From positions 63,862,001-63,926,000 of the forward strand of contig NC_086097.1 in assembly GCF_963921235.1 (NCBI RefSeq): a stretch of DNA of 64,000 bases, written 5' to 3'. The stretch is from Mobula hypostoma. Lineage: Eukaryota. The notes below the pieces were generated by a model. It ran no database searches. It saw only the letters and a list, made by a program, of their open reading frames with translations, and was not told the DNA's origin. The translations under genes and the position numbers were made by a program. Positions 7,499 to 44,567 of the stretch are shown here, in pieces; position 1 is the first letter of the stretch; each line of letters starts with the position of its first letter.

Positions 7499-8826
7499 TC
7501 AGCCATGCCCGACTCGTCGTGCGCCCGACAAGACAGGGCATCTGTTCCAACTCCCTGGGCGGTACTTCAGGCTGAACTCATAGGCAGACAAGGCTGCTAA
7601 CCACCGGTGCCCAGTAGCGTCCAGCTTTGCCGAGGTCAGGATATAAGTGAGGGGGTTGTCAGTTCTCACCTTAAACTGGGCCCCGTATAGGTAGTCACTC
7701 AACTTGTCCACCACCGCCCATTTCAACGCCAAGAACTCCAGCTTGTGAGTGGGATAGTTTCTCTCAGATGGCGACAAGCTCCGACTGACAAACACTACCG
7801 GCCTCAATCCGTTGCTCTGTTCCTGGTACAGGACAGCCCCCAGACCCTCGTGACTGGCATCAGTGTTTTCCGGGGATCAGCAAAAGCCAACACCAGGGCC
7901 TGTGTCAGCGCCCTTTTCAGAGATTGGAACGCCTCCTCACATTGAGCATCCCACCTCAATCCAAAAGGCTCCCCCGGGTTCAGGTATCCTCCTACCTCCG
8001 GCCCTCGGTCTCCCTTCCTCTTCCTCCCCACAGGTGGATAACCACACAACAGCTGGTTCAACGGATGACTCATTTTCGCATATCCTTTCACGAATCGCCG
8101 GTAATATCCGCAAAACCCCAAAAATGAGCGTAAGGCACTCACCTTCTGAGGTCTCGGCCAGGTGGTTACTGCGGCTATCTTACCCGGATCAGTGGCCACT
8201 CCATTTCGCGAGATTATGTGCCCGACATAACTGACCGACGTCTTACAGAACTGACAATTATCCAGGGAAAGTTTTAACCCTTCCTCCTTCAGCCGACTCA
8301 GCACCTTCAGCAGCTGCTCCTCGTGTTCCTCCAACGTAGATCCAAACACTATCAGGTCGTCCAGGTACACCAATACCTCCAGCAGGTTCATATCCCCCAC
8401 TGTCCTCTCCATGAGCTGCTGGAAGGTGGCTGGGGCCCCAGAGATGCCTTGGGGCATTCGTTCAAACTGGAAGAATCCTAGGGGTCAGATAAAGGCCGTC
8501 TTCTCTTTACCGGTCTCACTCATCGGAATCTGGTAATACCCACTCCGCAAATCCAATATGCTAAACCACTGCACCCCACTCAGACAGGCCAATGCATCTT
8601 CCACCCTCGGGACCGTATATTGGTCGGGAACAGTGCGCCGGTTCAGGGTCCTGTAGTCCACGCATATGCATACCTTCCCATTTTTCTTCCTTGCCACCAC
8701 TATGGGGGACGCATAGGGGCTTCGGGACTCCGCGATAATCCCTGCATCCTTCAACTGCCGCACATCTTCCAGATCTGCTGGGGCCAACCGCCGCGACCTC
8801 TCTCTAAACGTGGTGTCATTTGTCAC
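7499..8826 (-). pseudogene. Gypsy reverse transcriptase / RNase H, fragmented
   Basis: CVDYRTLN, LDLRSGYYQI, MPQG, YLDD, FLGFCGYYRRF and YPTHKLEFLALKWAV motifs spread over several frames. Confidence 0.92.
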
Positions 8827-9303
8827 TCAGATAGCGTGCCAAGTGCTCTTGGAACATCCCACATCAAACTCGCCCTGAGAAAAGACACCCCCTAACTTCT
8901 GCATCTTCTCCACCAGCCTGCTCTTATACGCCGGCGGTACAAGGGAGTCTTCAAAACTAAAGGCCTCCTCGGTCAGCCGCCCCCCGTTCTCCAATAGTTT
9001 TCCTCCACTGGGCTTCCCGGGGGCGCTGGACATCACCGTCACCGGGAACAAGTGCGCGAGGGGCATCCTGCGCTTAAAAGTGATCTCCCGCTCCGTTATG
9101 TTCCTTACCATCACCCCCATCCGCCGTGCCTGTACAGCTGAGGGCCTCTGCAATTCAGGTCTCACCAGCGCCCCAGCCGGGAACCGGGACTCCCGTTCCA
9201 GGTCGTCGGGGGCGTCTACCAGCAGGGCCTCTCCCGCCGGTACTCCGGGGAATCTGGGGGTCCCCATCACTAATGCCGCCTCCCCTGGCCGTATCACCTT
9301 AGG

Positions 9304-11007
9304 TCTCAAAGCTCTACGCTTCTTTTTGGATTCCAGACCTAATCAGTTCCCCTCTACCACCACACTGCTCCGTCTAGCAGAATTAGTCCTTACTCTTAAT
9401 AATTTCTCCTTTTGCTCCTCCCATTTCCTCCAAACTAAAGGTGTAGCTATGGGCACCCGTATGGGTCCTAGCTATGCCTGCCTTTTTGTTGGGTTTGTGG
9501 AACAATCTATGTTCCGTGCCTATTCTGGTATCTGTCCCCCACTTTTCCTTCGCTACATCGACGACTGCATTGGCGCTGCTTCCTGCACGCATGCAGAACT
9601 CGTTGACTTTATTAACTTTGCCTCCAACTTTCACCCTGCCCTCAAGTTTACCTGGTCCATTTCCGACACCTCCCTCCCCTTTCTAGATCTTTCTGTCTCT
9701 GTCTCTGGAGACAGCTTATCCACTGATGTCTACTATAAGCCTACTGACTCTCACAGCTATCTGGACTATTCCTCTTCTCACCCTGTCTCTTGCAAAAACG
9801 CCATCCCCTTCTCGCAATTCCTCCGTCTCCGCCGCATCTGCTCTCAGGATGAGGCTTTTCATTCTAGGACGAGGGAGATGTCTTCATTTTTTAAAGAAAG
9901 GGGCTTCCCTCCCTCCACTATCAACTCTGCTCTTAAACGCATCTCCCCCATTTCACGTACATCTGCTCTCACTCCATCCTCCCACCACCCCACTAGGAAT
10001 AGGGTTCCCCTGGTCCTCACCTACCACCCCACCAGCCTCCGGGTCCAACATATTATTCTCCGTAACTTCCGCCACCTCCAACGGGATCCAACCATTAAGC
10101 ACATCTTTCCCTCCCCCCCTCTCTCTGCATTCCGCAGGGATCGCTCCCTACACAACTCCCTTGTCCATTCGTTCCCCCCATCCCTCCCCACTGATCTCCC
10201 TCCTGGCACTTATCCGTGTAAGCGGAACAAGTGCTACACATGCCCTTACACTTCCTCCCTTACCACCATTCAGGGCCCCAAACAGTCCTTCCAGGTGAGG
10301 CATCACTTCACCTGTGAGTCGACTGGGGTGATATACTGCGTCCGGTGCTCCCGATGTGGCCTTTTATATATTGGTGAGACCCGACGCAGACTGGGAGACC
10401 GCTTTGCTGAACATCTACACTCTGTCCACCAGAGAAAGCAGGATCTCCCAGTGGTCACACATTTTAATTCCATATCCCATTCCCATTCTGACATGTCTAT
10501 CCACGGCCTCCTCTACTGTTAGGATGAAGCCACACTCAGGTTGGAGGAACAACACCTTATATTCCGTCTGGGTAGCCTCCAACCTGATGGCATGAACATT
10601 GACTTCTCTAACTTCCGCTAGGCCCCACCTCCCCCTCGTACCCCATCTGTTACTCTTTTTTATGCACACATTCTTTCTCTCTCCTTTTTCTCCCTCTGTC
10701 CCTCTGAGTATACCTCTTGCCCATCCTCTGGGTCACCCCCCCCCCCCGTCTTTCTTCCCGGACCTCCTGTCCCATGATCCTCTCGTATCCCCTTTTGCCT
10801 ATCACCTGCCCAGCTCTCGGCTCTATCCCTCCCCCTCCTGTCTTCTCCTATCATTTTGCATCTCCCCCTCCCCCTCCAGCTTTCAAATCCCTTACTCACT
10901 CTTCCTTCAGTTAGTCCTGACGAAGGGTCTCGGCCTGAAACGTCGACTGCGCCTCTTCCTATAGATGCTGCTTGGCCTGCTGCGTTCACCAGCAACTTTG
11001 ATGTGTG
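9304..11007 (+). mobile_element. 5'-truncated Penelope-like element (RT + GIY-YIG) nested in Gypsy pol
   Basis: GVAMGTRMGPSYA, RYIDD, VIYC...LYIGET. Premature TAG at 10520-10522 and natural stop at 10619-10621. TSD TCACCTTAGG at 9294-9303 and 11008-11017. Confidence 0.93.
10913..10948 (+). ncRNA. Minimal type I hammerhead ribozyme in the Penelope-like 3' end
   Basis: AGTC-CTGACGA-agggtctcggcct-GAAA-CGTC-GACT: conserved core, stem I AGTC/GACT, short stem II and palindromic ACGT stem III. Confidence 0.75.
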
Positions 11008-11098
11008 TCACCTTAGGCCTCGCCTGAGTGCACCACACTGTCCCTCGTTTGCACTCAGGATCCAGCCCCTGGGGGTCACTCACTCCTCCGTACACCGC

Positions 11099-11503
11099 TC
11101 AGAACACTGGGTGTACCGAGAGGGTCTCCAGAAAGTTCTCCCCCGCCGCCTTCTTACAGGCTCCCAAGAGCCGTCGCACCAGAGGGGAGTTAGTCCCCAC
11201 TAGCAGGGCAGCACCAACGGTTTCCACCGGGTCCGGACAGACCAACACCAGCGTCGCAAAGGCTTCCGACACTCCCACATCTCCCTCCGAAAATTCCAGT
11301 CTCACTGACAAGTACCCATCGTACGGGTAATCACCATCACTTATGCCCCAAATCTCCAATGCATTAAAAGGAGTTACTGGCAAATGCTTCAGATATTTGT
11401 TGTAGAACGACCGGTACAGTAAGGTAACCTGCAACCCGGTGTCAAGGAAGGCTTTCGCAAAGATTCCCTCTATCCGTAGGGACACGCTGGAACGAGGTCC
11501 CAC
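11099..11503 (-). pseudogene. Gypsy aspartic protease
   Basis: AFLDTG catalytic motif and LLVGTN. Confidence 0.85.
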
Positions 11504-11593
11504 CAGTCCATCCGGAATTTGGGCTTGAACTTTCAGGGGGTTCCATAGCTGTTTTCTGGGAACGTGTTCCTCCCGAGACTCCAGTCCGTTCCC

Positions 11594-12912
11594 TCACTGA
11601 GCCTCTCCTAAGTTTCCCGACACCCCTCCCTTCTTAGTGGCCCGGGGCCCTCCCCCCTCGGAGCATCTCGTCTCACAATCCCTCCGCAAGTGACCCGCTT
11701 CCCCACAGCTGTAGCATGCCCCCGGCCACTCACATTCCCGCCAGAAATGCCCCTCTCTCCCACAGTTATAGCACCCGCTACCCACCGCCTCTCTCCTCCC
11801 GGTACGCCCCCCCCGGGGACCCCTTGGATTTCTCTGATCTCACCCCAGCTACCACCTCCTGAACCGCTGAAGACCGTCCCTGGGGGTCCGAGCCCCCTGG
11901 TCGGCCCGAAGCACTCTCCTCTGCCCGTACCTCTCTAATCAGCTGCCTGAATGATGGAGGGGGGCTCCTCTTATATGACTGCCGGATACTCCAAGCCACC
12001 CTGTCATCCTCCTGGGAACCTCTACATATCTGGCTCATCCTCAACTTCGCTACTTTGTCCGCCCTCACTACCCCTCGTCGCCGCAGCCCCGTAAGCTTCC
12101 CTTCCAGCTGGAAAACGTATTCTGAGAGCTTTTCCCCTCTTCTCTGCCCCATTTGTTGAAACTCCGCTAAGTGTTGCCAGGGATCTTCTGACAGTCCAAA
12201 CACTTCCTCCAAAGCGTCCAAACACTCTTGACAGGGAAGCCGAAGGGCGTTTCGCTCTCAAATCGCGGACCACACGGGCCGCCCCGCCCCTTAAGCTTTC
12301 CACCAATTGCTGTCTCTTTTCTTCATCCGAAACTAGCCACACCTCTAACAACTGGGGTGTATCCTCAACCCAGGTCTCATATTCATCCTCCCCTACCGGG
12401 GTGGGCCTGGCTCCCGAGAAAATTCTCAGCTTCGGACGGGGCCCCTCAACCCTTCTCGCCAGGGAGGTAATGGCAGCCGCTAACTCAGAGGTCTCAGCCC
12501 TAACTGAGGGACGGGGCCTGGCCAAGCCTTCCCACTCCACACCTCCACCCCTGGCTACTGGCACCTCCCCTGGGGCCTCATCTAGCTCCTCCTCCGGCAC
12601 CTCCTCACTTTCATCCTCCGGGAGGGTGTGGAGACCCCACGACCCTGCCTCCCCCTGGACATGGACTGTCGCTGGTAGTTCCAAAGTAATGACGTTGGCA
12701 CTCGTCCGCACCAACATCCATCTGGACTCCAGTTCTTTCCCACACCTTCTAGCTATAAGTTCTACCTGCCCGATACCTTTAATCAAACTCAACCCTCGCA
12801 CCAGTACATCTGCTGGAATGCAATAATCGACCCCACTTAGCACGCATGCATGATTCACCGGTACCACCTCAAATTCACACCAACTTACAATCTTATCTCG
12901 ATCCATCTTCAC
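11594..12912 (-). pseudogene. PNMA-like Gypsy gag with two CCHC zinc knuckles, frameshifted
   Basis: KLRIFSG...P.GEDEYETW, QQLVESLRGGA, Q..GEKLSEYV motifs typical of PNMA-type capsids; CYNCGREGHFWREC and CYSCGEAGHLRRDC. Confidence 0.85.
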
Positions 12913-12955
12913 ACCACTTAACGCGACGACTATTACAGCTTTACCGAAAGTCCAA

Positions 12956-12973
12956 ATCCTGGGCGAGCCCCCA
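12956..12973 (-). other. Primer binding site, tRNA-Pro type
   Basis: TGGGGGCTCGCCCAGGAT on -, 16/18 match to the tRNA-Pro PBS TGGGGGCTCGTCCGGGAT, 2 nt after the 5' LTR. Confidence 0.85.
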
Positions 12974-12975
12974 CT

Positions 12976-13962
12976 TGTAACGATCCGTTATATAGACTCG
13001 TGTATGTCTCGGGGAAATTCCGCCCAGCACCTGCTTCAACACTCCCCACAGGGTCGGTCGCTGCCCGAATCAATCCCAAACATCAATCATCAGCCAGCAC
13101 ACCCAGTAAATTTTAACAAGTACACTTTTTAGATGTTACTAATTCTATGACATTAATATAAATTTGATACAGAGAGGAAAGTAATGAAAAAAGAAAGGCA
13201 CCAACACTTATCAAAGTCCAAGTTCTTCGCGCGCTGCCGTTGGAGCTCAATCGATTCCTGACGACCATCTGAATTTCGTCGACTCACAGCTCGGGACCAC
13301 CCGGAGTGATCGACCGGAGCCTCTCCGCACGTCCGTGGTCCTCCTCGTCTCTCCTCCGACGCCCCGTCAAAACCCCCGTCCACCAACCTCCCCGTCTCTC
13401 CACCGACTCCCCGTCTCTCCAACTCCCCGTCAAAACCCCCGTCCGCCGTCCTCCGTCTCTCCTCCGACTCCCCACCAAAAACCCCCGCACGTCCACAGTC
13501 CTCCCCGTCTATCTTCCGATTCCCCGTCAAAACCCCCATCCACAGTCCTCCCCGTCTCTCCTCCGACTCCCCGCCAAAAACCCCCGCACGTCCACTGTCC
13601 TTCCCGTCTCTCCTCCGACTCCCCGCCAAAAACCCCGTCCACCGTCCTCTCCGACTCCCCGCCAAAAACCCCTGCACGTCCGCCATCCTCTTCGTCTGTC
13701 CTCCGACTCCCCGCCAAAAACCCCCGCATGTCCACCGTCCTCCCCGTCTCTCCTCCGACTCCCCGCCAGAACCCCGTCCACAGTCATATGATACAGCATG
13801 GTATCCGAAAACAAAACAATACATGACCACCCATTGGCTAATAGCATCCTGCTATCTATAATAACCCAAGCAACTGTCTAGTTAGAGACTGTCTCAGCAT
13901 CCCCCAGTATAACATAACAAAAGAAGCCATTTTAAATTTAACAAAAAGAAAGACCCCGTACA
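12976..13962 (-). repeat. 5' LTR (987 bp) with an expanded internal minisatellite
   Basis: Same ends as 4708-5344, with extra copies of ccgtctctcctccgactccccgccaaaaacccc-type units at about 13335-13785. Confidence 0.93.
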
Positions 13963-14039
13963 TGTAAATGCAGCTTGATGGCATAGTTGGTGATGTCTGC
14001 CATTGCGTTGATTGAGAATGGACTGTTGATGTGGGAATT

Positions 14040-14722
14040 AAGTGATTGCATTCCCCTTGCTTGTTGATAGAGCGTAGCTGGTGGGTTTTTAGTTGCCCTG
14101 TCTGCTACAAAAGGCAGGACCTCCCGGTGGCTACCTATTTCAATTCAATTTCCGATTCTGACACATCTGTCCATGAGCTCCTCTACTGCTATGATGAGGC
14201 CAAACTTGGGTTGGAGGAGCCACACCTCATTCAGTCTGAGTAGTCTCCAATCTGACGGCATGAACATGGATTTCTACAAGTTCCGGTAGTTTCTCCCCCC
14301 CACCCCTCTTCTCTCTTTCTCCATCCCCTTTCCTGGTTGCCCTCACACCCTTCTCTTCTCACTTGCCATTACCTCCCTCTGGTTCCTCCCCTTCCTTTTT
14401 CCATGATCCACTGTGCTCTCCCATTAGATTCCTTTTCCTTCAGTCCTTTACCTCTTTTACCTATCTGCTCCCAGCTTTCTTCATTCCCGCTGCCCGCCCA
14501 CAAACCTTCCCCCCTCACCTGATCTCACATAGTATCTGAAAGCTTGTACTCCTTCCTCTCCTCCACACCTCTCCAGCTTCTGCCCCATTCTTTCCCAGTC
14601 CTGATGATGGGCCTCAGCTCGAAATGTCGACTGTTAATTCCCTTCCATAGACTTGCAGAATTCCTCCAATATTTTGTGTGTGTGGCTCAAGATTTCTAGC
14701 ATCTGCAGAATCTCTTGTGTCT
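14040..14722 (+). mobile_element. Degraded Penelope-like 3' fragment (GIY-YIG tail, pyrimidine-rich UTR, hammerhead)
   Basis: KRQDLPVATYFNS...YCYDEAKLGLEE is homologous to 10430-10620, followed by the same 3' end. Confidence 0.85.
14596..14633 (+). ncRNA. Hammerhead ribozyme-like motif (diverged)
   Basis: CAGTC-CTGATGA-tgggcctcagctc-GAAA-TGTC-GACTG. Confidence 0.6.
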
Positions 14723-16178
14723 ATGGTCAGTGTTTGGTTGTCAGGTAAATGTTACACCGGAATGGTTGACTTCAGCTAGTTCTGAAGCACCTCTTCACTA
14801 ATGCTAATAGATTTTGACCACTGCTGACCACTTGTTCAGGTTCTCTTGATGTGGCTTTATTATGTTCTTTTAAGCCAGGTTAGATTGTTACTAATGATAG
14901 TGATGTTTGCATTAGGCTGTAAAGTCACAGGTTATAACAGACATCGTCATGCCCGTGTATTCCTGATGTTGATTTGCAAGATCTTATCTGATTCTATCCT
15001 ATTGTTTATTTAAAGGAAAGTTGCCGAAAAGAAAATGGTGGGGGAGAAGGGTTGATTCTATTTGGGGCATTAAGATTGGCTTGGTTTCTCATTTGGGGTA
15101 GTCCAGAACAAGAGGATGGTCTTAGAATTAGGACATTCATGAATCATATTAGAAAGCACTTTTTTTTAATGGAAACAGACAGCGTAGGCTTCAAAAGTCT
15201 GTTAAGACTAGATCTATTAAAAATTCCGAAACTGAGATTGATGGAGTTTTGTTGCAAACACAGGATGTGCAACTAAGATGGGCAATTAGAGTGGAAGTGC
15301 TATCAGCCATGATCAGAATGAATGGTACACAGGCTCAGGGGACTGAAAGGAACAAGAATGAATTAATATTTTTATGGTCAGTTAGCTTGCTGACCTGTCA
15401 AATATGTCATTGTTATACCCCAAATTGTGGAATGATACAGCACTGAAGAGGGGAATATTTACCCATTGTGCTGTGCTAGCTCCTTGATAGAGTTATTACT
15501 CTCCCAAGATAACTGTATTTATCTACTTTTTTAAAAAATTGAACACAGCACAGGAACAGATCCTTTGGCCCTCATTGTCTTTGCTGACCATGAAGCCAGA
15601 TTAAACTATCCTATCTACCTGCACATGATCCATATCTCTCTATTCCCTGCATGTTCTGTGCCTAATTGTTTCTTAAACACCAGCCAAGCCAGTATGTTTC
15701 AGGCATCCATTGCTGCATGTAAAGAATTTATCCTGCACATCTCCTTTCAACTTTCAATACATTGAGGGGACAGACCTCATAGCAACATTTCATCTGAGGC
15801 TCCGATATTCCATTTGTTGTGTGGGATAACAACAACAAATATAAATATTCAGTTATTTGCATAAGTTTTACCGTATTTAGGATTAGAGGTTCATCGTTAG
15901 TCAGAAGATGAGGATAAATCAGGTGTTTTCAGAACTAGGAGAAGTAGTATGTTAAGTTGCTATGGAGCAGTGATGCAGCAGTGTGATGTCCCAGTACATC
16001 TTGAAAATTATCCCCAGCATCGACCAATCTTGACAAGCATTGTGAGTAACACTGTAAATTTGAGTAATGATAAGTAATAATCTGAAATTTATAACTTAAA
16101 ACTGGAAGTTCATTGCTAATATAAAAATCCAATGCTATGCTTTTAAATCTTGATTTAATACCTTTTATTTTTCTTTAG

Positions 16179-24845: not shown

Positions 24846-24964
24846 ACCCACATTTCTCTTGATATTGCAGTAACTTCTGTAAATAGGGAGTGATTTTTTT
24901 TCAGCAGGATAGAAGTCCTTTCCTGTGCTAATTTTGAACGGGAAATTATGTATTATCTTTACAG

Positions 24965-25074
24965 AATAACTGAAGCAGAATTCAAAATGGATATTGCTTT
25001 GAAGGATCCACTTTTAATTGAAGTATCTGGAACAGCAGCATTAAGTGCTTCAGCGCTTGGCCCACCATACAGAG
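24965..25074 (+). CDS. MIA2: MIA2 coding exon (ITEAEFKMDIALKDPLLIEV...PPYR)
   Basis: tttacag acceptor. The gtctgc donor is weak but gives the phase 1 needed for the next exon. Matches 'LTETELKFELLEKDP'. Confidence 0.8.
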
Positions 25075-25317
25075 GTCTGCATTCTTTTTCATTCTTCTGG
25101 ATATTCTATCCACCACAGTAAATTTACTTCAGTCTTATCATATAGCAGAGGTTTTGGTTGGTGCACATCCTTTGGTTATTGGTGTAATGAGACTTCATTT
25201 ATGTAAGAATCAGCCCAGTTGTTATTTACCTTAATTATATAGGTTTTAAAAATTAGATGTTTGATTTTAATATCAAAAATTAAAGCTGTTTTGTTTTTTT
25301 TTACTTCATAATTATAG

Positions 25318-25449
25318 GAAGAAGTTCTCCATATGGCCCTTCTCCGGTGGGTCGACCTGGCTCCGAACCTATGGGCTTTCTATCACCTCCATTACTAGAT
25401 GGGCCCTTAAGGTTTTCACCTTTGTTTCCTGGGAAACCAGACTCTAAAA
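25318..25449 (+). CDS. MIA2: MIA2 coding exon ([14 protein letters not shown]...[19 protein letters not shown])
   Basis: AG/GT boundaries, phase 1 to 1. Matches 'HSPYGPSPLG...FLSPPTLLEGPLRLSP'. Confidence 0.93.
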
Positions 25450-26226
25450 GTAAAGTATTTAGCAAAATAATCTGTTTGAAATATTTTTCATACTAGTTAA
25501 GTCATAGCCAGAGTGACGCATACTATCCAAGAGATTTATAAAACTTTTGCCAGATCTTCTTTTTTAATTAAGAGAAAAGATTAGCTAGGCTGGTATTATT
25601 TTCTCTAGAACAGAGGGTGCTGAGGGGAAATTTGATCATTGTATAAAATTATGATAGATTAGCAAAGAAGGATGTTTCTCTCAAGTTCTAGGCTCAGTAA
25701 CTGGGAAGTGCGCCACTTTTGTATAAAGAAATCAGATCAAAAAATATAAAACAAGTTTGCTTAACCAATTAATGCATTTGGAAAGAATGTGAGGTGATGT
25801 AAGAAATATTAGAGTAGGGTTGAAGAAAGATAGTGTCACCAAGAGGGATGGTAAAAATCTGGAACCTGCTGCCTTCAAGGGTGGCCAAGGCAATTCCTCA
25901 TTGCACTCAGTGTAAAATTCTGAATGACCACATCTTTGATATGATGGACAAATAACTATATGGGCCCCTTCTCAGAGGTTATGGACATAATGGGTCAAAT
26001 ATCCTCTTTCTGGGATGTCTATGATTGTAAAATTATAGAATTGCTGAATAGTTGTATAGTAATCTGATTTTATTAATGTTTTCCGCAGTAATATAAGCAT
26101 ACTCCTGTCAGCATACTAATTAGCTTAGGTTGTGAACTATTCTACGAAATGTTCTACATGTAGTATTTATTTTATATATGAAAGAACTGGCTTGTGTAAT
26201 TCATTTGGTGTATTGTTTGTCCATAG

Positions 26227-26379
26227 CGAGAGGTCCATCAATCCATCTGGATCGCACAACTAATGAAAATACAGATTCTGTTTCTGACCGAATGTCTGAT
26301 CAGCATGGTCCACAGTCAGACAGTGGTTCACTGTCCCCTGTGTGGGAAAGAGATCGTAAGCTGTGCAGAGCATCACCAG
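26227..26379 (+). CDS. MIA2: MIA2 coding exon (RGPSIHLD...QSDSGSLSPVWERDRK)
   Basis: ccatag acceptor and gtacga donor, phase 1 to 1. Matches 'SDTGSLSPPWDQDRR'. Confidence 0.9.
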
Positions 26380-26577
26380 GTACGAAAGAATCCATATAAA
26401 ATATCCATCTACTGAGTGGGTATATAGGTTCTGTGACTGAGATTACTTGAATATAATTTTTTAATAAATGTCAATGTCTAGTCCTGTGTATGTTTTAAGG
26501 GAATTAAGATTTTGAAGAAGTGCTTGACCAATTGGATGCATTTCACATTCCTGTACATCTACAATGTACACTTGTAG

Positions 26578-26763
26578 ATCCTTTATCTCCCTGTTCTCAG
26601 GCATTGGATGGAGCAGGGGTTCCCAACCTGGGCTCCACTGACCCCTCGGTTAATGGTAGGGGTCCATGGCATAACAAAAGTTCTGTGGACCAACCGAATC
26701 TCTTTTTTCAGCCAGAACAGGTACAGTGTAGCACTGCATTTGTAATTCTCGCAAAACAAATAT
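26578..26763 (+). CDS. MIA2: Probable MIA2 coding exon containing a hAT MITE (DPLSPCSQALDGAGVPNLGSTD...LAKQI)
   Basis: cttgtag acceptor, open frame and gtaagt donor, phase 1 to 1, at the position where one exon is expected. Similarity to human is low, and an alternative donor exists after 26720. Confidence 0.55.
26614..26682. mobile_element. hAT-type MITE remnant
   Basis: CAGGGGTTCCCAACC terminus and internal ggggtccatggcataa shared with 41054-41093. Confidence 0.75.
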
Positions 26764-26779
26764 GTAAGTGAGAAGGTCA

Positions 26780-29700
26780 GACAGTGAGAGTAGGAATGCG
26801 ATGAGGTGGAGGATAAATGCGTGGCTGAGGGATTGGAGCAGGGGGCAGGGATTCAAGTTTTTGGATCATTGGGACCTCTTTTGGCGCAGGCGTGACCTGT
26901 ACAAAAAGGACGGGTTACACTTGAATCCCAGGGGGACCAATATCCTGGCGGGGAGATTAGCGGGGGCTACTGAGGTGATTTTAAACTAGAATGGTTGGGG
27001 GGTGGGAATCAAATTAAAGAGGCTAGGCGTGAGGAGGTTAGTTCACAACAGGGGGATGGGAACCAGTGCAGAGAGACAGAGGGGTGTAAAGTGAGCGTAG
27101 AAGCAAAAAGTACAAAGGAGAAAAGTAAAAGTGGCAGGCCGACAAATCCAGGGCAAGCATTAAAAAGGGCCACTTTTCAACATAATTGTACAAGGGCTAA
27201 GAGAGTTGTAAAAGAGCGCCTGAAGGCTTTATGTGTCAATGCAAGGAGCATTCGTAATAAGGTGGATGAATTGAAAGTGCAGATTGTTATTAATGATTAT
27301 GATATAGTTGGGATCACAGAGACATGGCTCCAGGGTGACCAGGGATGGGAGCTCAACGTTCAGGGATATTCAATATTCAGGAGGGATAGACATGAAGGAA
27401 GGGGAGGTGGGGTGGCGTTGCTGGTTAAAGAAGAGATTAACGCAATAGAAAGGAAGGACATAAGCCGGGAAGATGTGGAATCGATATGGGTAGAGCTGCG
27501 TAACACTAAGGGGCAGAAGACGCTGGTGGGAGTTGTGTACAGGCCACCTAACAGTAGTAGTGAGGTCGGAGATGGTATTAAACAGGAAATTAGAAATGTG
27601 TGCAATAAAGGAACAGCAGTTATAATGGGTGACTTCAATCTACATGTAGACTGGGTGAACCAAATTGGTAAAGGTGCTGAGGAAGAGGATTTCTTGGAAT
27701 GTATGCGGGATGGTTTTTTGAACCAACATGTCGAGGAACCAACTAGAGAGCAGGCTATTCTGGACTGGGTTTTGAGCAATGAGGAAGGGTTAATTAGCGA
27801 TCTTGTCGTGAGAGGCCCCTTGGGTAAGAGTGACCATAATATGGTGGAATTCTCCATTAATATGGAGAGTGACATAGTTAATTCAGAAACAAAGGTTCTG
27901 AACTTAAAGAGGGGTAACTTTGAAGGTATGAGACGTGAATTAGCTAAGATAGACTGGCAAATGACACTTAAAGGATTGACGGTGGATATGCAATGGCAAG
28001 CATTTATAGGTTGCATGGATGAACTACAACAATTGTTCATCCCAGTTTGGCAAAAGAATAAATCAAGGAAGGTAGTGCACCCATGGCTGACAAGAGAAAT
28101 TAGGGATAGTATCAATTCCAAAGAAGTAGCATACAAATTAGCCAGAGAAAGTGGCTCACCTGAGGACTGGGAGAAATTCAGAGTTCAGCAGAGGAGGACA
28201 AAGGGCTTAATTAGGAAGGGGAAAAAAGATTATGAGAGAAAACTGGCAGAGAACATAAAAACGGACTGTAAAAGCTTTTATAGATATGTAAAAAGAAAAA
28301 GACTGGTAAAGACAAATGTAGGTCCCCTGCAGACAGAAACAGGTGAATTGATTATGGGGAGCAAGGACATGACAGACCAATTGAATAATTACTTTGGTTC
28401 TGTCTTCACTAAGGAGGACATAAATAATCTTCCAGAAATAGTAAGGGACAGAGGGTCCAGTGAGATGGAGGAACTGATGAAATACATGTTAGTAGGGAAG
28501 TGGTGTTAGGTAAATTGAAGGGATTGAAGGCAGATAAATCCCCAGGGCCAGATGGTCTGCATCCTAGAGTGCTTAAGGAAGTAGCCCAAGAAATAGTGGA
28601 TGCATTAGTGATAATTTTTCAAAACTCGTTAGATTCTGGACTAGTTCCTGAGGATTGGAGGGTGGCTAATGTAACCCCAATTTTTAAAAAAGGAGGGAGA
28701 GAGAAACTGGGGAATTATAGACCGGTTAGCCTAACGTCGGTGGTGGGGAAACTGCTGGAGTCAGTTATCAAGGATGTGATAACAGCACATTTGGAAAGCG
28801 GAGAAATGATCAGACAAAGCATGGATTTGTGAAAGGAAAATCATGTCTGACGAATCTCATAGAATTTTTTGAGGATGTAACTAGTAGAGTGGATAGGGGA
28901 GAACCAGTGGATGTGGTATATTTGGATTTTCAAAAGGCTTTTGACAAGGTCCCACACAGGAGATTAGTGTGCAAACTTAAAGCACACGGTATTGGGGGTA
29001 AGGTACTGGTGTGGGTGGAGAATTGGTTAGCAGACAGGAAGCAAAGAGTGGGAATAAACGGGACCTTTTCAGAATGGCAGGCGGTGACTAGTGGGGTACC
29101 GCAAGGCTCAGTGCTGGGACCCCAGTTGTTTATAATATATATTAATGACTTGGATGAGGGAATTAAATGCAGCATCTCCAAGTTTGCGGATGACACGAAG
29201 CTGGGCGGCAGTGTTAGCAGTGAGGAGGATGCTAAGAGGATGCAGGGTGACTTGGATAGGTTGGGTGAGTGGGCAAACTCATGGCAGATGCAATTTAATG
29301 TGGATAAATGTGAAGTTATCCACTTTGGTGGCAAAAATAGGAAAACAGATTATTATCTGAATGGTGGGCGATTAGGAAAAGGGGAGGTGCAACGAGACCT
29401 GGGTGTCATTATACACCAGTCATTGAAAGTGGGCATGCAGGTACAGCAGGTGGTGAAAAAGGCGAATGGTATGCTGGCATTTATAGCGAGAGGATTCGAG
29501 TACAGGAGCAGGGAGGTACTACTGCAGTTGTACAAGGCCTTGGTGAGACCACACCTGGAGTATTGTGTGCAGTTTTGGTCCCCTAATCTGAGGAAAGATA
29601 TCTTTGCCATAGAGGGAGTACAAAGAAGGTTCACCAGATTGATTCCTGGGATGGCAGGACTTTCATATGAAGAAAGACTGGATGAACTGGGCTTGTACTC

Positions 29701-30115
29701 GTTGGAATTTAGAAGATTGAGGGGGGGATCTGATTGAAACGTATAAGATCCTAAAGGGATTGGACAGGCTAGATGCAGAAAGATTGTTCCCGATGTTGGG
29801 GAAGTCCAGAACGAGGGGTCACAGTTTGAGGATAGAGGGGAAGCCTTTTAGGACCGAGATTAGGAAAAACTTCTTCACACAGAGAGTGGTGAATCTGTGG
29901 AATTCTCTGCCACAGCAAACTGTTGAGGCCAGTTCATTGGCTATGTTTAAGAGGGAGTTAGATATGGCCCTTGTGGCTACAGGGGTCAGGGGGTATGGAG
30001 GGAAGGCTGGGGTGGGGTTCTGAGTTGGATGATCAGCCATGATCATAATAAATGGCGGTGCAGGCTCGAAGGGCCGAATGGCCTACTCCTGCACCTATTT
30101 TCTATGTTTCTATGT
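26780..30115 (+). mobile_element. Young 5'-truncated CR1 LINE, ORF2 with three frameshifts
   Basis: ORF1 end, APE endonuclease, RT (FADD) and a (TTCTATGT)n tail. Indels near 28478, 28818 and 29727 relative to the twin copy at 56628-60124. Confidence 0.95.
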
Positions 30116-30542
30116 CAGCAAGATTTTCATATTTTCAAAATTTGTAGAAAGAAAATATAACTATGATTAACTGTTTTAAATTTTGATAAATTTCAATGAA
30201 TGAATGTCATTAATGGTCTGAAATAGACTTGAATGACCCAATTTACTATTTTAACAGACCTACTATTGCATTGGTCCCTGGTAGACTCAAAGTTACGGGA
30301 TGCTTTTAAGTAAACCAATGAGGACAAACTTATGAAAAATATTAGCTGAAAAAAATATACCTATCCATGGAAGAAAATGTTACTTATGTAAAGGTCAACT
30401 TATTCTAGAATTGTTAGTCATTTTTTAATGCACAAAATATTTCTGAATTTGAAGTTTTTCAAAGTTTTAATTAGATTTCAGTGTTTGTTTTTTTTCCCTG
30501 TTGGGTGAAAAAAATGACATATCATTTGTGACCTGTTTCATA

Positions 30543-31080
30543 TATAGAAACATAGAAGCATTGAAAAATCTGAACCACTGTAGAACATTTGGTCCTTCAA
30601 GTTTGTCTTTCAATATGATCATATCAATTCCTCTGTGTCATTGCTATATTCCTGCCCATTGCGTCTAGAAATGTGTCTACCTCCTTTTTAAATATAGTCT
30701 GCCACTTGGCCTTCTGTGATACTGAGTTCCACAGAATGAAGACATTTCTCCTTACCTCATTCCTAAGTGTCATACCACATATCTTGATACTTTTGAGTTC
30801 TGGTTCTAGATGCCCATTCCATATCTACGCCTGTACTTGTGGTATCATCCTATCAAGCCCTGTCAGAATTTTGAATGTTGCAATTAAACATTCTCTTATT
30901 CTTTTAAAGTTTAATGAATGCTGCTTTTGTCAGTCAAAACTTTTCCTCATACAGTCCTGTCATCTCAGTCTGGAAAACTTCTACTGCATCAAGAGTATAT
31001 ATCTCCTTCGTTGTTTTAAGGATATCAAACCTGGACACAATACTCCAAAAGTCTTCTCCTATACAATTATAGTAAGACAT
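30543..31080 (-). mobile_element. Old CR1 3' fragment
   Basis: atagaaacatagaa tail in reverse orientation and degraded RT C-terminal sequence. Confidence 0.55.
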
Positions 31081-31094
31081 TCCTCCAAAGCCTT

Positions 31095-33718
31095 CAAAGG
31101 TGGTATACAGATAGTGTCATGGCTGCAGAAAGGGAGGAAGTCACGGAGGGATTGTCTACTGAGTCTTTGTGGGTGGAAGTTAGGAACAGGAAGGGGTCAG
31201 TAACTCTACTGGGTATTTTTTATAGACCACCTAATAGTAACAGGGACATCGATGGGGAGATAGGGAGACAGATTCTGGAAAGATGCAATAAAAACAGGGT
31301 TGTTGTGGTGGGAGATTTTATTTCCCCAATATTGATTGGGATCTCCTCAGAGCAAGGGGTTTAGATTGGGTGGAATTTGCTAGGTGTGTACAGGAAGGTT
31401 TCCGGACACAATATGTAGATAAGTCTACAAGAGCAGAGGCTGTATTTGATCTGGTATTGGGAAATGAACCTAGTCAGGTGTCAGGTCTCTCAGTGGGAGA
31501 GCATTTTGGAGATGGTGATCACAATTCTATCTCCTTTATCATAGCATTGGAGATGGATAGGAACAGACAAGTTAGGAAAGCCTTTAATTGGGGTAAGGGG
31601 AAATATGAGGCTATTAGGCAGGAACTTGGAATCATAAATTGGGAACAGATGTTCTCAGGGAAATGTACAGCAGAAATGTGGCAAATGTTCAGGGGATATT
31701 TGCATAGGTTTGTTCCAATGAGACAGGGAAAGGATGGTAGGGTACAGGAACCATGGCTGTTGAAAATCTAGTCAAGAAGAAAAGAAAAGCTTACGAAAGG
31801 TTAAAAAAACTAGGTAATAATAGAGATCTAGAAAATAATAAGGCTAGCAGGAAGGAGGTTAAGAATGAACTTAAAAGAGCCAGAAGGGACCATGAGAAGG
31901 CCTTGGCAAGCAGGATGAAGGAAAACCCCAAGGCATTCTACAAGTATGTGAAGAGCAAGAGGATAAGATTTGAGAGAATAGGACCAATCAAGTGTGACAG
32001 TGGAAAAGTGTGTATGGAACCAGAGGAGGTAGCAGAGGTACTTAATGAACACTTAGCTTCAGTATTCATTATAGAAAAGGACTTTGGCAATTTTAGGGAT
32101 GGCTTACAGCAGACTGAAAAGCTTGAGTATATAGACCTTAAGAAAGAGGATGTGCTGGAGCTTTTGGAAAGCATCAAGTTGGATAAGTCACTGGGACTGG
32201 ACGAGATATACCCCAGGTAGGCTGTAGCTGTGGGAAGTGAGGGAGGAGATTTTGGAGCCTCTGGCAACGATCTTTGCATCATCAATGGGGACGGGAGAGG
32301 TTCCAGAGGATTGGAGGGTTGCAAATGTTGTTCCCTTGTTCAAGAAAGGGAGTAGAGGTAGCCCAGGAAATTATAGACCAGTGAGTCTTACTTCAGTTGT
32401 TGGTAAGTTGATGGAGAAGATCCTGAGAGGCAGGATTTATGAATATTTGGAGAGGCATAATATGATTAGGAATAGTCAACGTGGCTTTGCCAAAGTCAGG
32501 TCGAGCCTTAGGAGCCTGATTGAATTTTTTAAGGATGTGACTAAACACATTGATTAAGGTGTAGTGTATGTGGATTTCAGCAAGGCAAGGTACCCCATGC
32601 AAGGCTTGAGAAAGTAAGGAGGCATGGGATCCAAGGGTACCTTGCTTTGTGGATCCAGAATTGGCTTGCCCACAGAAGGCAAAGAGTGGTTGTAGACAGG
32701 TTATATTCTGCTTGGAGATAGGTGACCAATGGTGTGCCTCAGGGATCTGTTCTGGGACCCCTTCTCTTCGTGATTTTTATAAATTACATGGATGAAGAAG
32801 TGGAGGGATGGGTTAGTAAATTTGCTGATGACACAAAGGTTGGGGGTGTTGTGGAAAGTGTGGAGAGCTGTCAGAAGTTACGGTGGGACATTAATGGGAT
32901 GCAAAACTGGGGGGAGAAGTGGCAGGTGGAGTTCGACACAGATAAGTGTGTGGTGGTTCATTTTGGTAGGTCAAATATGATGGTAGAATATTGTAAGGCT
33001 CTTGGCAGTGTGGAGGATCAGAGGGATCTTGTGGTCCATGTCCATAGGACACTCAAAGCTGCTATGCGGGTTGGTTAAGAAGGCATACGGTGCATTGGCC
33101 TTAATCAACCATGGGATTGAGTTCAAGAGCCGAGATGTAATGTTACAGCTGTCTCGGACCCTGGTCAGACCCCACTTGCAGTCCTGTGCTCAGTTCTGGT
33201 CACCTCACTACAGGAAGGATGTGGAAACTATAGAAAGGGTGTAGAAGAGATTTACAAGGATGTTGCCTGGATTGGGGAGCTTGCCTTACGAGATTAGGTT
33301 GAGTGAACTTGACCTTTTCTCCTTGGAGCAACAGAGGATGAGAGGTGACCTGCTGGAGGTGTATAAGAAGATGAGAGGCATTGATCGTGTGGATAGTCAG
33401 AGACTTTTTCCCAGGGCTGAAATGGCTAACATGAGAGGGCACAGTTTTAAGGTGCTTGGAAGATGAGATGAGATGTATGGAGGAGATGTCTGGTAAGTTT
33501 TATACGCAGAGAGTGGTGAGTGCGTGGAATAGGCTGCCAGCAACTGTGGTGGAGGTAGATACAATAGGGTCTTTTAAGAGACTCCTGGATGGGTACATGG
33601 AGCTTCGAAAAATAGAGGGCTTTGGTTAACCCTCAGTAATTTTGTAAAGTAAGTACATGTTCAGCGCAGCATGGTGGGCTGAAAGGCCTGTATTGTGCTG
33701 TAGGTTTTCTATATTCTA
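31095..33718 (+). mobile_element. Degraded CR1 ORF2 copy
   Basis: YRPPNS, NYRPVSLTS, GVPQGSVLGP and FADD motifs across frames, plus a CR1 tail. Confidence 0.92.
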
Positions 33719-33979
33719 ATAAGAAGCAAAGTAACCAACTCTTAATAAAAGTTAAGATGTTGATTTCTAGCTATAACTTGGGCTCAGAGTTTAGATCATT
33801 TTTTTCCTTAGCAGCAATGATTTATAAATTGGTACACCTCTACATTTGGAAAAGTGTTGTTCTGAATATATTTTCTGACTCTCTACATACATGTACATTC
33901 CTGTTTATTTACAATAGCTTACATTGCAAAAGAGAAATACAAAAAAAATAGATTTGGTTGGGTGGGGGGGGGGGGTGCA

Positions 33980-36847
33980 GTTTAAATGAGAATTGCAGGG
34001 AACTGCGAACCAGAGTTCCAGGACAGCAAGTGGAATGGTTTTGGGTAAAGTAGCATTAAGCCTACATAAAAAGACAAGAACTAAAAGGTTGAGAATGATG
34101 GGGCTAATGTTCTGTCTATTTCAATGCAAGAAATATTGTAGGTATGAGTTCGGAGGATAAATCAACACATGGAATTATGATTTTGTAGCCATTAGTGAGA
34201 CTTGGTTGCAGGAAGGGCAGGACTGGCAGGTCAGACATGATAGTGGGGCACAATTTAAAAAGAGAAAGGTACTAGTCATGGAAAATGATACAGCAGTGCT
34301 CAGACAGGAGTACTTGCCTACTGAAGCTTTATGGGTGGGATTGGAGAATAAGAAAGGAGCGTCCACTTTAATAGGAGTGTAGTATAGACCTCCCAATAGT
34401 CAGTAGGATTTAGACAAGCAAATTTGCAGAGAGGTAAGAGTTACAAGAAAAAAAAGGTTGCGATAGTAGGTGATTTTAACTTTGCACATATTGACTGGGA
34501 TTGTCAAATGTGCTCAGCGAGGTTTCCTTAATCAAAATACATAGAAGTCACAAATATAGAGAGCACGATACTAGATCTCCTATTAGGGAATGAGACAGGG
34601 AAGGTGACAGATCTAGTATTCACAGTTCCATTAGTTTCAGCATAATTATGGAGAAGAATAGGACAGGTCTTGGATTGAGATTCTAAATTGGAAAATGTCC
34701 ATTTTTTTTTGATGGCAGGTGAGGACTAGGAATGGTTGTTTTCTGGCAAAGGGATGCTTGGTAAGTGGGAGGCTTTCAAAAGTGAAATATTGGGAGTACA
34801 GAGTTAGTAGGTTCCTGTCAGAATAAAAGCCAAGAATAACAGGTTTAGGGAATCTTGATTTTCAAGGGATATTGAGACCCTGGTTAAGGAGTTGCATAGC
34901 AGGTATATGCAAGAAGTAAGAAATGAGGTACTTGAAAAGTATAAGAAATGCAAGAGAACACTTAAAAGGGAAATCCAGAAGGATAAAGGGGGACATGATG
35001 TTGCTCTGATAGACAACATGAAGGAGAATTCCAAGGGTTTCTGCAGATACATTTAGAGCAGAAAGAAAAACAAGGAACAAAATTTATATTTACTATATTT
35101 ACTCAGGAGGTGGACACAGTATATAGAGCTGAGGCAAAACAGTAGTGAGGGCCGTATCCAGATCACAGAAGCTGTCTTGCTGTCTTGAGGTACGTTAGGG
35201 TGGATAAGTAAGACCCCAGGGCATGACAAGGTGTCATCTTGGACTTTGTGGGTGGCTGGTGCAGAAACTGTAGGGGTCCTCGCCCAGAGATATTTAACTA
35301 TCCTTGGCCTCAGGTGAAGGGCTGGAGGATAGCTAATGTTGTTCTATTGTTCAAGAAAGGCTGTACGAATACACCAAGAATTTATAAGCAGTGAGCCTGA
35401 TATCAGTCATGGGTAAATTATTGGAACATATTCTAACGGACAGGATATATATATATAAAAGTATTTTCATAGACAGGGATAGTCAACTTGGCTTTTTGTG
35501 TGATACATCATGTCAAATCAGCCTTAGAGTTTTTTGAGGAGGATAGCAGGAAAGGCAGTGGAGGTTGTCTACATGGACTTTAGCAGAGCCTCTATCAAGT
35601 CCACATGGGAGGCTGATCCAGGAGGTTCAGTTGCTTGACATTCAGGATGTAGTAAATTTGTTTCAACATTAGCTTAGCAGAAGGTGGAGCGTGCTACTAG
35701 ATGGTTCACTCTCTGACTGGAGATCAGTGCTGGGCCTGTTGTTTGTCATCTCTATTAATGACTTGAATGATAATGTGGAAAACTGGATCAGCAAATTTGC
35801 AGAATACACCAAGGTTTGGGGCATACTGAGCAGTGAGTAAGGCTATCAAAGCTTGCAGATCCAGACCAGCTGAAAACATGGCAGATGGAGTTTAATACAG
35901 ACAAGTGTGCGGTGATTGCACTTTGGGAGGACAAACCAGTGTAGGACTTGCACAGTGGAAAGTAGGGAACTGGGGAGTGCAGAAGAACAGGGGAATATAG
36001 ATCCATTAATTCCGTCAAGGTGGCATCACAGGTCGATAAGCTTGTAAAGAAAGCTTTTGGCACATTGGCCTTCATAAATCAGAAGACTGAGTACAGGAGT
36101 TGGGATGTTATGTTGAAGTTGTATAAGATGTTGGTGAGCAATACACACAAAATGCTGGCAGAACTCAGCAGGTGGAGGAGCATCTATGCAAATAAATGAA
36201 CAGTCAATGTTTTGGCCCGAGATCCATCATCAGGCCCCAACGAAGGGTCCTGGCCCAAAACTTCACCTGTTCATTCACTCCCATAGATATTCTGCATGAC
36301 TTGTTGAGTTTCGCCAGCACTTTGTGTGTGTTGATCTGGATTTCCAGCCTCTGCAGGATCTCTTGTGTTTATAAGATGTTGGTCAGGCCAAATGTGGGGG
36401 TATTGTGTGCAGTCCTGGTCACCTATGTACAGGAAAGATATCAATAAGATTGAGAGTACAGAGAAAACTTACAAGGATGCCCCTGGACTTGAAGACCTCA
36501 GTTATTAGGAAAGATATGATTAGAATTTGACTGTATTTCCTGGAGCATAGGAAAATAAGGGGATATTTGATAGTGGTATAAAATTTGAGAGGGTATAGAT
36601 GGGATAAATGCAAGCAGGTTTTTTTTACTGCAGTTGCATGACACTAGAACTAGAGGTCATAGTTCAAGGGTGAAAGATGAAATATTTAAGGGGAACTTCA
36701 CTCGGAACGTAGTGCAAGTGTGGAACGAGCTGCTGGGATGGGAGGGGTATGGTAGCCTATACTCCAGGTGCAGGCCAGTGGCACTGTGCAAATCACCACA
36801 CTGAATGGGCCAAATGGCCTGTTTCTATGCTATTGTGTTCTATGACT
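33980..36847 (+). mobile_element. Highly degraded CR1 (ORF1/ORF2 junction to 3' tail)
   Basis: ETWLQEG-like, YRPP and RT remnants, and a tail ctatgctattgtgttctatgact. Confidence 0.8.
36139..36369. mobile_element. Palindromic Penelope-derived mini-element inserted into a CR1
   Basis: TSD TATAAGATGTTGGT at 36122-36135 and 36370-36383. Inverted arms acacacaaaatgctggcagaactcagcagg / ttgttgagtttcgccagcactttgtgtgt. Confidence 0.8.
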
Positions 36848-36887
36848 AAAACTATCTGATATATTTATAACTCACTTTCACCTTCAG

Positions 36888-36973
36888 CTTTGATATGTGA
36901 AGATGGGCGCCCCAAACTAGAAAATAGCATGCAAACTTCAAATTCTGCTTCAGAAAGCCAGGCCCAAGATTGT
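36888..36973 (+). CDS. MIA2: MIA2 coding exon (LICEDGRPKLENSMQTSNSASESQAQDC)
   Basis: ccttcag acceptor and gtaagt donor, phase 1 to 0, fitting the flanking exons. Low sequence conservation. Confidence 0.7.
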
Positions 36974-37141: not shown

Positions 37142-37370
37142 GACTTACTAAATGCATCTCTAAACCAGTCTCTTCCTGTGGAAGCTGAATTTGGAATTCG
37201 ACCTGGTTTTCCACTTGCCTATCCCAGCCACGTTCCCTCATTACCTGTTGATCTAAGAGGTCATGTTCCACTCAGAGGACATCCACTACCTCCACGTGTT
37301 GGAATCTATGGTCCTCCGGAATGTTTCCCGCTAAGAGCTTTTGGTTTGCCGCCTCATCCTTCCATGGGAA
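37142..37370 (+). CDS. MIA2: MIA2 proline-rich exon (DLLNASLNQSLPVEAE...PPHPSMG)
   Basis: ctgcag acceptor and gtaagt donor, phase 0 to 1. Resembles 'DSSLPAENEATGPGF...PVDARGP'. Confidence 0.88.
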
Positions 37371-40269: not shown

Positions 40270-41053
40270 AACAAGGTTGATTTAAACAATGAACTTCTGA
40301 TGTGCATTTTTTTTTGCATACAACTTCACGTACATAGGAATGAAGGTAAATGGTTATGGGACTTTACAAGTTGTTTTTCCACATCCACTTTATATCCCTA
40401 TCCACTTAGTTCTTAGGCATTAAATTGGTCAGTTTGGATCATTAATTGTTCTTGCACCTCTGGGGGGTGGGGGGGGGTGGAGAGAAGATAGAGCAGTGAT
40501 CCTTACGATGAAATCAGTCCTTAGATATAGTGATAAAACTTGGTCTGCTTCAAGATGCCACTATGAAAAGCAAGTACATCATATTTCACTACAAGGAGAT
40601 AGCCTAAGAAAACAATGGTAGAATATTGTATTTAGTTACCACCACTCACCTATCTACTTCAAAAAAGATAAAGCAATAAGAGGTCAAATCCAAGCAGCAG
40701 CTCACTAACTAAAGACAGGCAAATAAATGGAACAATCCTAGGAATGATTTGCATAAATTTCAGGCTAACAATAACTGATGGAATTTGGGATTGAGTTGGA
40801 ATGATAATTGATAATGGTTCTGTTTGTTATTAACAAATTGTGAAATATTGTCTAAGACAGATAATCGTACTACTGTTTGCCATCTAATTGCGTTGCAATG
40901 ACTTTCTGAGAAAACCAAAATATTTTCATTGAATAGCACTGTGCACTTGAAATAAGCAATGAGAGAAACAATAGACAGACAATTCAAAATCCCTAAACAG
41001 CAGTGGTCTATGTAAACACTGGCCTTGAATATTTTCTCTTCCATTAACTAGAG

Positions 41054-41093
41054 CAGGGGTCCATGGCATAAAATAAGAGGTTGGGAAACCCTG
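41054..41093. mobile_element. Internally deleted hAT MITE with an 8-bp TSD
   Basis: CAGGGGT...GGGAAACCCTG termini; flanks AACTAGAG / AACTACAG (7/8). Confidence 0.7.
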
Positions 41094-43313: not shown

Positions 43314-43875
43314 CTGGATTGAGGAAAACATTTAAAAATTAGGGACTCAAACAATATTTACACAATTTTTTTTTTACAGAATTCACACAAACTTGGCTAT
43401 TAACTATGGACTCCAGATAAGGTTAAAATACATCACCAAGCAATCCACAATGCAGCACCATGACAATCACAATAAAGTTGCTATCTAAAATTTCACATTG
43501 CTGTTTTCCCAAGAAACCAGTTTAACAGTGGAAGCATAATCCTCTAAAACATATTTCACCTATTTAATATTCAGTACAAAAATTAGTTCATTGGCCAGAA
43601 AACTAATTTCATTTTAATGATTAACTGCTCTAGAAATTTTGACAATTTCATGGAACAGCACAGCACGGGAAGGCTCTTCAGCTAACATTATTTCTCCTAT
43701 AAATGTCTAATTTTGCACTGCTTTACTATTCAATCTATACAGTTTATTTTTCTGTAAAGTTCATTGCTTTCTATTATTCAAGAATAAATACTCAAGAAGA
43801 GAAACACAAGTCAAAAATTATCACACCAAGACCAACATTAATACAAAAAAAAGCACAAGTAGACCCACTGCTTAC

Positions 43876-44567
43876 CATGGATTGAAAGGTGAGAAAGCTT
43901 TGTACACTTCCATGCCAAAAGCACCAAAGGGTCTTCATTGCGGTTGTCGCTGAGATCTGGAAAACCATTAATGCCTTGCTCTGCATCCTTTATTAGGAGG
44001 AAGTGGGTAAGGGATTTGTCATACTGCCTGGATATGAGATCTACCACGGCACCTGAAACACCATTAGTTGAGCTGTCAAAGTGAATTCTCCCTAAAGGTA
44101 TGCTTGGCTTCAGAATTCTAAGCAAAATGTCATTCCTGACATTAAAGGCCATGATGTAAACATGAAGATTTGCACAGTGCCTGGTAAGCACCTTCCAATC
44201 TGCATCTTGTGGCATGTTATCTAAAACGTGTATGTTGGACATCGAGAGATGATGTATTACAAGAGACAACCTATGCAAAGGCACATGGTTGCTGTTGGCG
44301 AGCACTCGTGTTACTTCAGCAGTAAAATCGCAGAAATCCAATGCAAGTGATCGCAGGTTAAGAAAGCGCTCCAACTCAACTGCCTCAATAATTGGGGTTT
44401 TATTAATAAAATGGGTATCCAGGAGACTCAGATGTTCAATGCAGTTGGCACTGGACTGAGGCAAGGCTGCTAGTGTTGTGGGAGTTACTACCTCCAGCAT
44501 AAAACCAAGGGAGAGCCATTTCAGATGTTTGGAATTTCCCAATACCTCTTCAATCAATTGTTGGATT
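43876..44567 (-). CDS. FBXO33: FBXO33 coding exon 2 (IQQLIEEVL...LSIH), leucine-rich region
   Basis: ttacag acceptor and gtaagc donor, phase 2 to 1. Contains 'LALDFCDFTAE' and 'FPDLSDNRNEDPLVLLAW'. Confidence 0.95.

Follow-up and report, generated by a model that had tools for sequence, protein, structure and literature searches.

Probable relic of an optional cassette exon, split by a transposon, in a ray cTAGE5/MIA2 gene

The locus and its mobile elements

The window analysed here, a stretch of 64,000 nucleotides from the ray Mobula hypostoma, contains the 3′ half of the cTAGE5/MIA2 gene. Its exons were placed from position 86 to position 39618 by tblastn of orthologues, and the polyadenylation signal AATAAA lies at 40264. 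The segment under study sits in the intron that follows exon 26227-26379. In a protein search this exon matches the orthologues of sawfish, electric ray, skate and shark, and its spliced joint to the preceding exon (25449>26227) is present in contigs of all three RNA runs described below. An earlier note on this DNA had described 26578-26763 as an apparent MIA2 coding exon with a hAT MITE embedded in frame. It proposed that the insertion frameshifted an ancestral exon, which was then rescued by a downstream donor at the price of a remodelled protein; skipping of the exon was offered as the alternative. The features that bear on these proposals are collected in Table 1.

Table 1. Coordinates of features in and around the segment under study
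Feature	Position	Strand	Basis or comparison
Upstream MIA2/cTAGE5 coding exon, 153 bp, phase 1-1	26227..26379	+	tblastn of orthologues
Putative relic cassette, 5′ half, from AG acceptor to insertion point	26578..26613	+	5/12 residues identical to sawshark cassette start
Probable target-site copy on the left, GGATGGAG; differs from nnnTAnnn at one base	26606..26613	+	
69-bp remnant of a high-copy hAT-type MITE of about 80 bp; left end complete, right end short of its last ~11 bp	26614..26682	+	
Putative relic cassette, 3′ half, up to the old donor (GT at 26721); frame differs from that of the 5′ half	26683..26720	+	
Putative former intron; GTAAGT donor in frame after 26763, with no sign of use in contigs	26721..26769	+	
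Young 5′-truncated LINE, endonuclease and reverse transcriptase (Pfam)	26780..30115	+	97.3% to 56631-59937
Downstream MIA2 coding exon	36888..36973	+	in orthologous proteins, follows 26379 directly
40-bp copy of this MITE with an internal deletion, downstream of the MIA2 polyadenylation signal; 7/8 flanking duplication	41054..41093	+	

Other parts of the gene differ among the fetched proteins. The exon that begins at 36888 has five extra start residues (ALICx, 36888-36903) in all fetched ray and skate proteins, and sharks and chimaera are without them; an AG 15 bases inside this exon, before 36903, would give the shark-type start DG. An upstream shift of the acceptor in the ray lineage is likely. 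The peptide of exon 25318-25449 is missing from epaulette shark isoform X3 (P0010), which is 43 residues shorter than X1, and this exon is a second optional exon of the cTAGE5 tail. Electric ray isoform X6 (P0004) carries two inserts that other rays lack, one in the coiled coil (about 48 residues), the other before the last exon (about 25 residues); they are possibly repeat-derived exons in the gene model.

Mobile elements are found throughout the neighbourhood. The LINE in Table 1, which we take to be CR1-like, begins 16 bases behind the 26763 donor and has GTCAG at both junctions. Its second copy, at 56631-59937, still has an uninterrupted reading frame of 1006 aa that encodes endonuclease and reverse transcriptase (Pfam), and recent activity of the family is likely. 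An LTR-type retrotransposon with integrase and reverse transcriptase (Pfam), presumably Gypsy-like, occupies about 4700-13960 on the minus strand, within MIA2 intron 2659-16178; its end repeats are 89-91% alike and it contains internal tandem units. Beyond MIA2, and tail to tail with it, lies an F-box gene (Pfam F-box; 43838-49884, minus strand), which we assume from synteny to be FBXO33.

The kinship that had been claimed between the MITE at 26614-26682 and the free copy at 41054-41093 held up. A 23-bp block is identical at 21 of 23 positions, and 15 of the 16 bases at the left end (26614) are complementary to the right end of the copy at 41054, so a terminal inverted repeat is present. The flanks of the 41054 copy, reported as an 8-bp target-site duplication, agree at seven of eight bases (AACTAGAG / AACTACAG) and are not a perfect repeat; the target site AACTAGAG (41046-41053) has TA at positions 4-5 and fits nnnTAnnn. 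The flanks of the 26614 copy do not match each other, and its right flank has likely been deleted. Loose contig ends accumulate before 26614 and behind 26682, which indicates that the full MITE is about 80 bp long, has inverted ends and is present in high copy. Past 26682 the contigs read on as GGGAACCCCTG. Before 26614 the loose-end consensus ends CTCTAGAT in run X12 (198 contigs, agreement only 0.4) and CTAGAT or CTAGAC in runs X10 and X17; the family flank consensus ends CTCTAGA. By its ends, inverted repeats and target pattern, the element is most likely a Buster-type hAT MITE.

Contigs placed on the region number 5,950 in the DNA-like run X12 and 556, 307 and 107 in the RNA runs X9, X10 and X17, with a depth peak at 26601-26726; these contig counts are not copy numbers of the MITE. 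RNA contigs by the hundreds carry other copies, and the family is thus common in ray transcripts; some of these contigs may be true exonizations. The MITE has no Rfam match, neither copy folds better than its shuffles (z -0.76 and -0.28), and a metagenome scan with a 19-base motif of the MITE returned three loci, none of which resembles the element beyond the motif. No paper dealing with this MITE, or with the MIA2 exon in cartilaginous fish, turned up in searches of PubMed Central and bioRxiv (open-licence content); the family may already be named.

One contig of organism D, about 4% diverged in the flank, runs from 26020 to 26674 and so enters the MITE, which shows the insertion to be shared with that species. 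Judged from depth (4.8 without the change, below the contig depth of 5.5), this contig appears to have A at 26610, which would give the target its TA at positions 4-5 and, at the residue just ahead of the insertion, an Arg codon as in sawshark; the ray window has Gly there. In record 10 of run X12, 26 letters differ, 19 of them before 26536 and about seven in or beside the MITE (26610-26674), above the flank rate; this record may be a contig tracking a collapsed repeat.

The candidate exon and the vertebrate cassette

Much of the earlier description of 26578-26763 proved accurate. The segment comprises 186 bp between AG and GT, in phase 1-1 and without stops, and reads AGVPNLGSTDPSVNGRGPWHNKS through the MITE; a second frame reads KFCGPTESLFSART as far as the GT after 26720. 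Computed splice products bear out the statement on phase, in that skipping and use of the donor after 26763 both lead to the native stop; the old sites 26578 and 26720 yield an out-of-frame product of 143 bases.

By splice-site score, the view that this was the only plausible exon in the intron has to be given up: a crude model that learned from 14 acceptors and 13 donors of the gene itself gives 10 phase 1-1 open candidates there an equal or higher summed score. Requiring at least the candidate's own value at each of the two sites leaves only three, and 5 of 100 shuffles yield one. Compared with the true exons of the gene, the segment has splice scores near the bottom of the range. Two of the three forward frames are open through the MITE, and an open frame across it is therefore no evidence for coding. 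The conserved core of the cassette described below, GRLSGP, is absent from the in-frame translation of 26578-26763. A search with the 61-aa candidate peptide scored none of 27 candidates, which is weak evidence, and Pfam gave no match. We also considered a mini-exon from the stronger-looking acceptor at 26716 (48 bp, in frame) and rejected it, as no joint to it occurs in the RNA contigs either. That the LINE brought in the GTAAGT donor is another idea we rejected, since this element begins only at 26780 and has GTCAG as its junction repeat; the 26763 donor is not part of the LINE and is older.

In bony vertebrates, a cassette marked by GPA[ED] stands at the equivalent junction in 108 of 147 anchored proteins from our first searches. 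The motif GR[LFM]SGP is found in 107 of these 108 cassettes, which had been chosen by the overlapping GPA[ED] motif. Cassettes with the GRLSGP core occur in coelacanth, lungfish, gar, sturgeon, bichir, birds, mammals and isoform X1 of sawshark, and some annotated isoforms of bony vertebrates (possum X7, serow X5, caecilian X1) are without the cassette. The earlier premise that an exon is required at this place, which as a rule holds in bony vertebrates, is wrong for cartilaginous fish: the cassette is missing in 37 of 38 junction-spanning proteins, including every ray and skate protein. That set derives from 43 fetched proteins, five of them non-spanning fragments, from 13 named species plus skate-like transcripts, and it consists of cluster representatives and members, not of every isoform per species. 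Already in the first set the flanking exons were joined directly in 33 of 33 spanning proteins, and chimaera and basking shark do likewise.

The idea that cartilaginous fish never had the exon was overturned by the remaining protein. Sawshark cTAGE5 isoform X1 (P0300) carries a 33-residue insert exactly at the 26379/36888 junction, isoform X2 (P0041) is without it, and the insert matches the bony-vertebrate cassette profile with E=0.00027. The two ends of the ray segment resemble this insert. Beyond the likeness of the 5′ half (Table 1), six of 11 aligned residues of 26683-26720 are identical to the sawshark cassette end. When the comparison is anchored on splice dinucleotides over both strands of the window, none of the 8,679 AG sites matches the cassette start as well as 26578 and none of the 6,737 GT sites matches the cassette end as well as 26720; the final five cassette residues, not shared by the mammalian motif, put 26720 first even when used on their own. 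Over the intron the anchored pair scores 48, and 200 shuffled cassettes reach at most 35. Unanchored, the two halves still come first in the intron, but at a suggestive level of about 2 SD above shuffles (49 against a shuffle mean of 43.9 and a maximum of 51 in 60), and three plus-strand places in the window outscore 26578-26720.

The resemblance to human RLSGPAELRSF that had been noted is a weak guide when the mammalian motif is taken alone, and it is the sawshark sequence that carries the case for a cassette. Compared with the cassette of macaque, the donor 26720 with its 14 preceding codons comes 21st of 655 donors. Seven bony-vertebrate cassettes fail to single out 26578 or 26720, and the relic call therefore depends on a single annotated isoform of sawshark. 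When the intron (525 windows) was searched with a profile built from 80 bony-vertebrate cassettes, nothing was found (best E 1.2), and the CGPTE frame ranked 85-135 of 351. The same kind of profile with four fish left out still recovers those fish; we conclude that it is too distant to see the ray relic.

The sawshark cassette is 99 bases long and the ray remains, minus the MITE, come to 74; the roughly 25 missing bases sit at the insertion and span the start of the GRLSGP core. The relic is identical to sawshark at 11 of 23 residues, compared with 39/43, 37/50, 17/24 and 51/75 (68-91%) in four neighbouring exons. By position, phase and matching ends, 26578-26720 is probably the orthologue of the vertebrate MIA2 cassette.

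Transcript contigs across the region

Contigs from four of 24 listed public runs were placed on 24900-26779: X9, X10 and X17 (three of seven runs guessed to be RNA) and the DNA-like X12. None of the listed runs is recorded as RNA, and the first three are counted as such since each shows two upstream GT..AG joints; X9 and X10 come from organism A and X17 from organism B, so that two species are represented. Record 1 of X10 and record 15 of X17 run through three exons and exit at 26379; their remaining 974 and 982 letters lie outside 24900-26779. If the exit is joined directly to 36888 and proceeds via 36888-36973, 37142-37370 and the last exon, these contigs end at 40276 and 40284, just past the AATAAA; the 26379-36888 joint is thus deduced from length and not displayed. 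In X9, an exon contig ends at 26379, where the unspliced contig of record 24 (26350-26666) branches off. Record 3 of X10 is a further unspliced contig (26470-26648), and both of these read through the 26578 acceptor. None of the three RNA runs has a joint into 26578, 26716 or the MITE, bearing in mind that contigs lose rare forms. Positions 26727-26779 have no contig cover in the RNA runs and likewise none in the DNA-like X12; this gap is not evidence of absence.

In the contigs examined, 26578-26763 is not spliced into the main MIA2 mRNA form. The proposed rescue by the 26763 donor, with its remodelled protein, is without transcript support, given that X10 and X17, two of the three RNA runs, have long contigs that pass it by, and the alternative of a skipped exon is favoured by the contigs that leave at 26379.

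Origin of the segment and comparison with known systems

We conclude that 26578-26720 is probably a dead, skipped relic of an optional cassette exon that was split by a MITE, and that the transposon letters likely lie outside the normal protein. The earlier claim that the insertion frameshifted an ancestral exon holds, with one correction. The sawshark match points to an ancestral exon at 26578-26720, and its halves are out of frame; the MITE remnant alone is not the cause, because its 69 bp are a multiple of three and leave the frame as it was, so that the shift needs the loss of about 25 exon bases.

The history might have run as follows. The jawed-vertebrate ancestor would have possessed a phase 1-1 cassette with the GRLSGP core at this MIA2 junction, and in cartilaginous fish its skipping would have become the usual form. 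Later, in the line leading to this ray and before the separation of organisms A and D, a MITE of about 80 bp may have been inserted into the little-used exon by a hAT transposase of the Buster type. A deletion of about 44 bp could then have removed the right end of the MITE, the right target copy and about 25 exon bases including the core; we favour a single deletion, as it accounts for all three losses. Skipping of a symmetric exon keeps the frame, and the damage would accordingly have cost little, leaving the remains to drift as intron. An alternative is that the MITE killed a working cassette exon. Yet the fetched sawfish, electric-ray and skate proteins all skip the cassette, which indicates that skipping was quite probably the usual form already when the MITE arrived.

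A partial rescue is the strongest competitor of the skipped relic. It would consist of a minor, tissue-limited isoform using 26379-26578 and 26763-36888, in which 62 residues, 23 of them MITE-coded, stand before the Sec23-binding proline-rich tail. Such a splice reaches the native stop, its donor is older than the LINE and outside it, and the optional status of the cassette in sawshark makes tissue-limited use plausible. Further, a stop-free, in-phase route to a donor is rare by chance: among 20,210 intronic start points it was found for GTAAGT in 0.24%, for GTRAG in 2.1% and for looser donors in 10.7%, and 2-11% is the range we apply here. The contig of organism D also has no listed difference over 26536-26609 (74 bases, comprising the acceptor region and the 5′ half), as against 19 substitutions in the preceding 516 bases; a plain stretch of intron (25577-25660, 84 bases) is equally free of differences in the same organism. 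Against an isoform of this kind, contigs of two species bypass the region with no listed joint into 26578-26763, the GRLSGP core would stay lost, and the peptide search described above, weak as it is, scored nothing. As contigs lose rare forms and a textbook donor in phase is seldom met by chance, we regard minor inclusion as unlikely, though with a chance that deserves mention. It is equally doubtful, in our judgement, that some ray tissues carry beside the COPII-binding tail a 62-residue insert composed of old exon, transposon, shifted exon and intron, the product of a shark-to-mammal cassette hit by a transposon and reframed by a new donor. If true, this would be an unusual entry of a DNA-transposon peptide into a conserved secretion factor by way of frame repair.

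Low-rate use of the 26578 and 26720 sites as a poison exon leading to nonsense-mediated decay is very unlikely. Both ancestral dinucleotides are intact, and the resulting stop lies one codon (3 bases) inside the exon that starts at 36888, ahead of two further junctions; but no joint at 26720 is listed, and its donor is weak (3.8 versus 8.5 for 26763). Still less probable is that the segment was never an exon and is plain intron with a MITE whose likeness to sawshark arose by chance. The weak unanchored scores, the single sawshark model and the silent bony-vertebrate profile would fit such a reading. However, 26578 and 26720, which both rank first among thousands of sites, had been named before the sawshark sequence was seen, and the five residues outside the mammalian motif rank first on their own. 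That the 186-bp exon belongs to the main mRNA is scarcely credible, for all its open frame and compatible phases, as no piece of 26578-26763 appears in the long X10 and X17 contigs.

As a skipped relic, the ray segment is a readable fossil of exon loss in which both splice sites, the transposon and the deletion are still visible, in an exon kept by bony vertebrates and one shark. The Sec23/24-binding tail of human cTAGE5 comprises residues 651-804 (PMC3128532). The ray relic suggests that the GRLSGP segment just before this tail is dispensable in rays, and that exons that are mostly skipped may offer transposons safe landing places.

The element itself has counterparts among known transposons. 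Buster-family hAT elements have the target consensus nnnTAnnn, an example being the MITE Mar of Drosophila willistoni (PMC3517528), and Buster elements are described with 8-bp duplications and ends of 14-16 bp (PMC12637253). The ray element resembles the Buster MITEs of the first of these papers in being short and non-coding, with short inverted ends that begin CAGGGG, and its 41054 copy has flanks that agree at 7 of 8 bases, with TA at positions 4-5. Unlike full Buster hAT MITEs, the 26614 copy is without its right end; the ray element is about 80 bp long. The host exon, for its part, is like the cTAGE5/MIA2 cassette of other vertebrates in having the same two flanking exons, the same phase and first and last residues as in sawshark, and differs from it in being split by a transposon, about 25 bases short, out of frame, destroyed in its core and missing from contigs. 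Finally, the locus recalls transposon exonization as outlined in PMC7786948, in that sequence of the transposon is bounded by a potential acceptor and a potential donor with the frame open. Exonization in that sense makes a new exon from intron, whereas the ray element appears to have entered an old exon, provides neither splice site and sits in a segment whose inclusion is not observed in the contigs.
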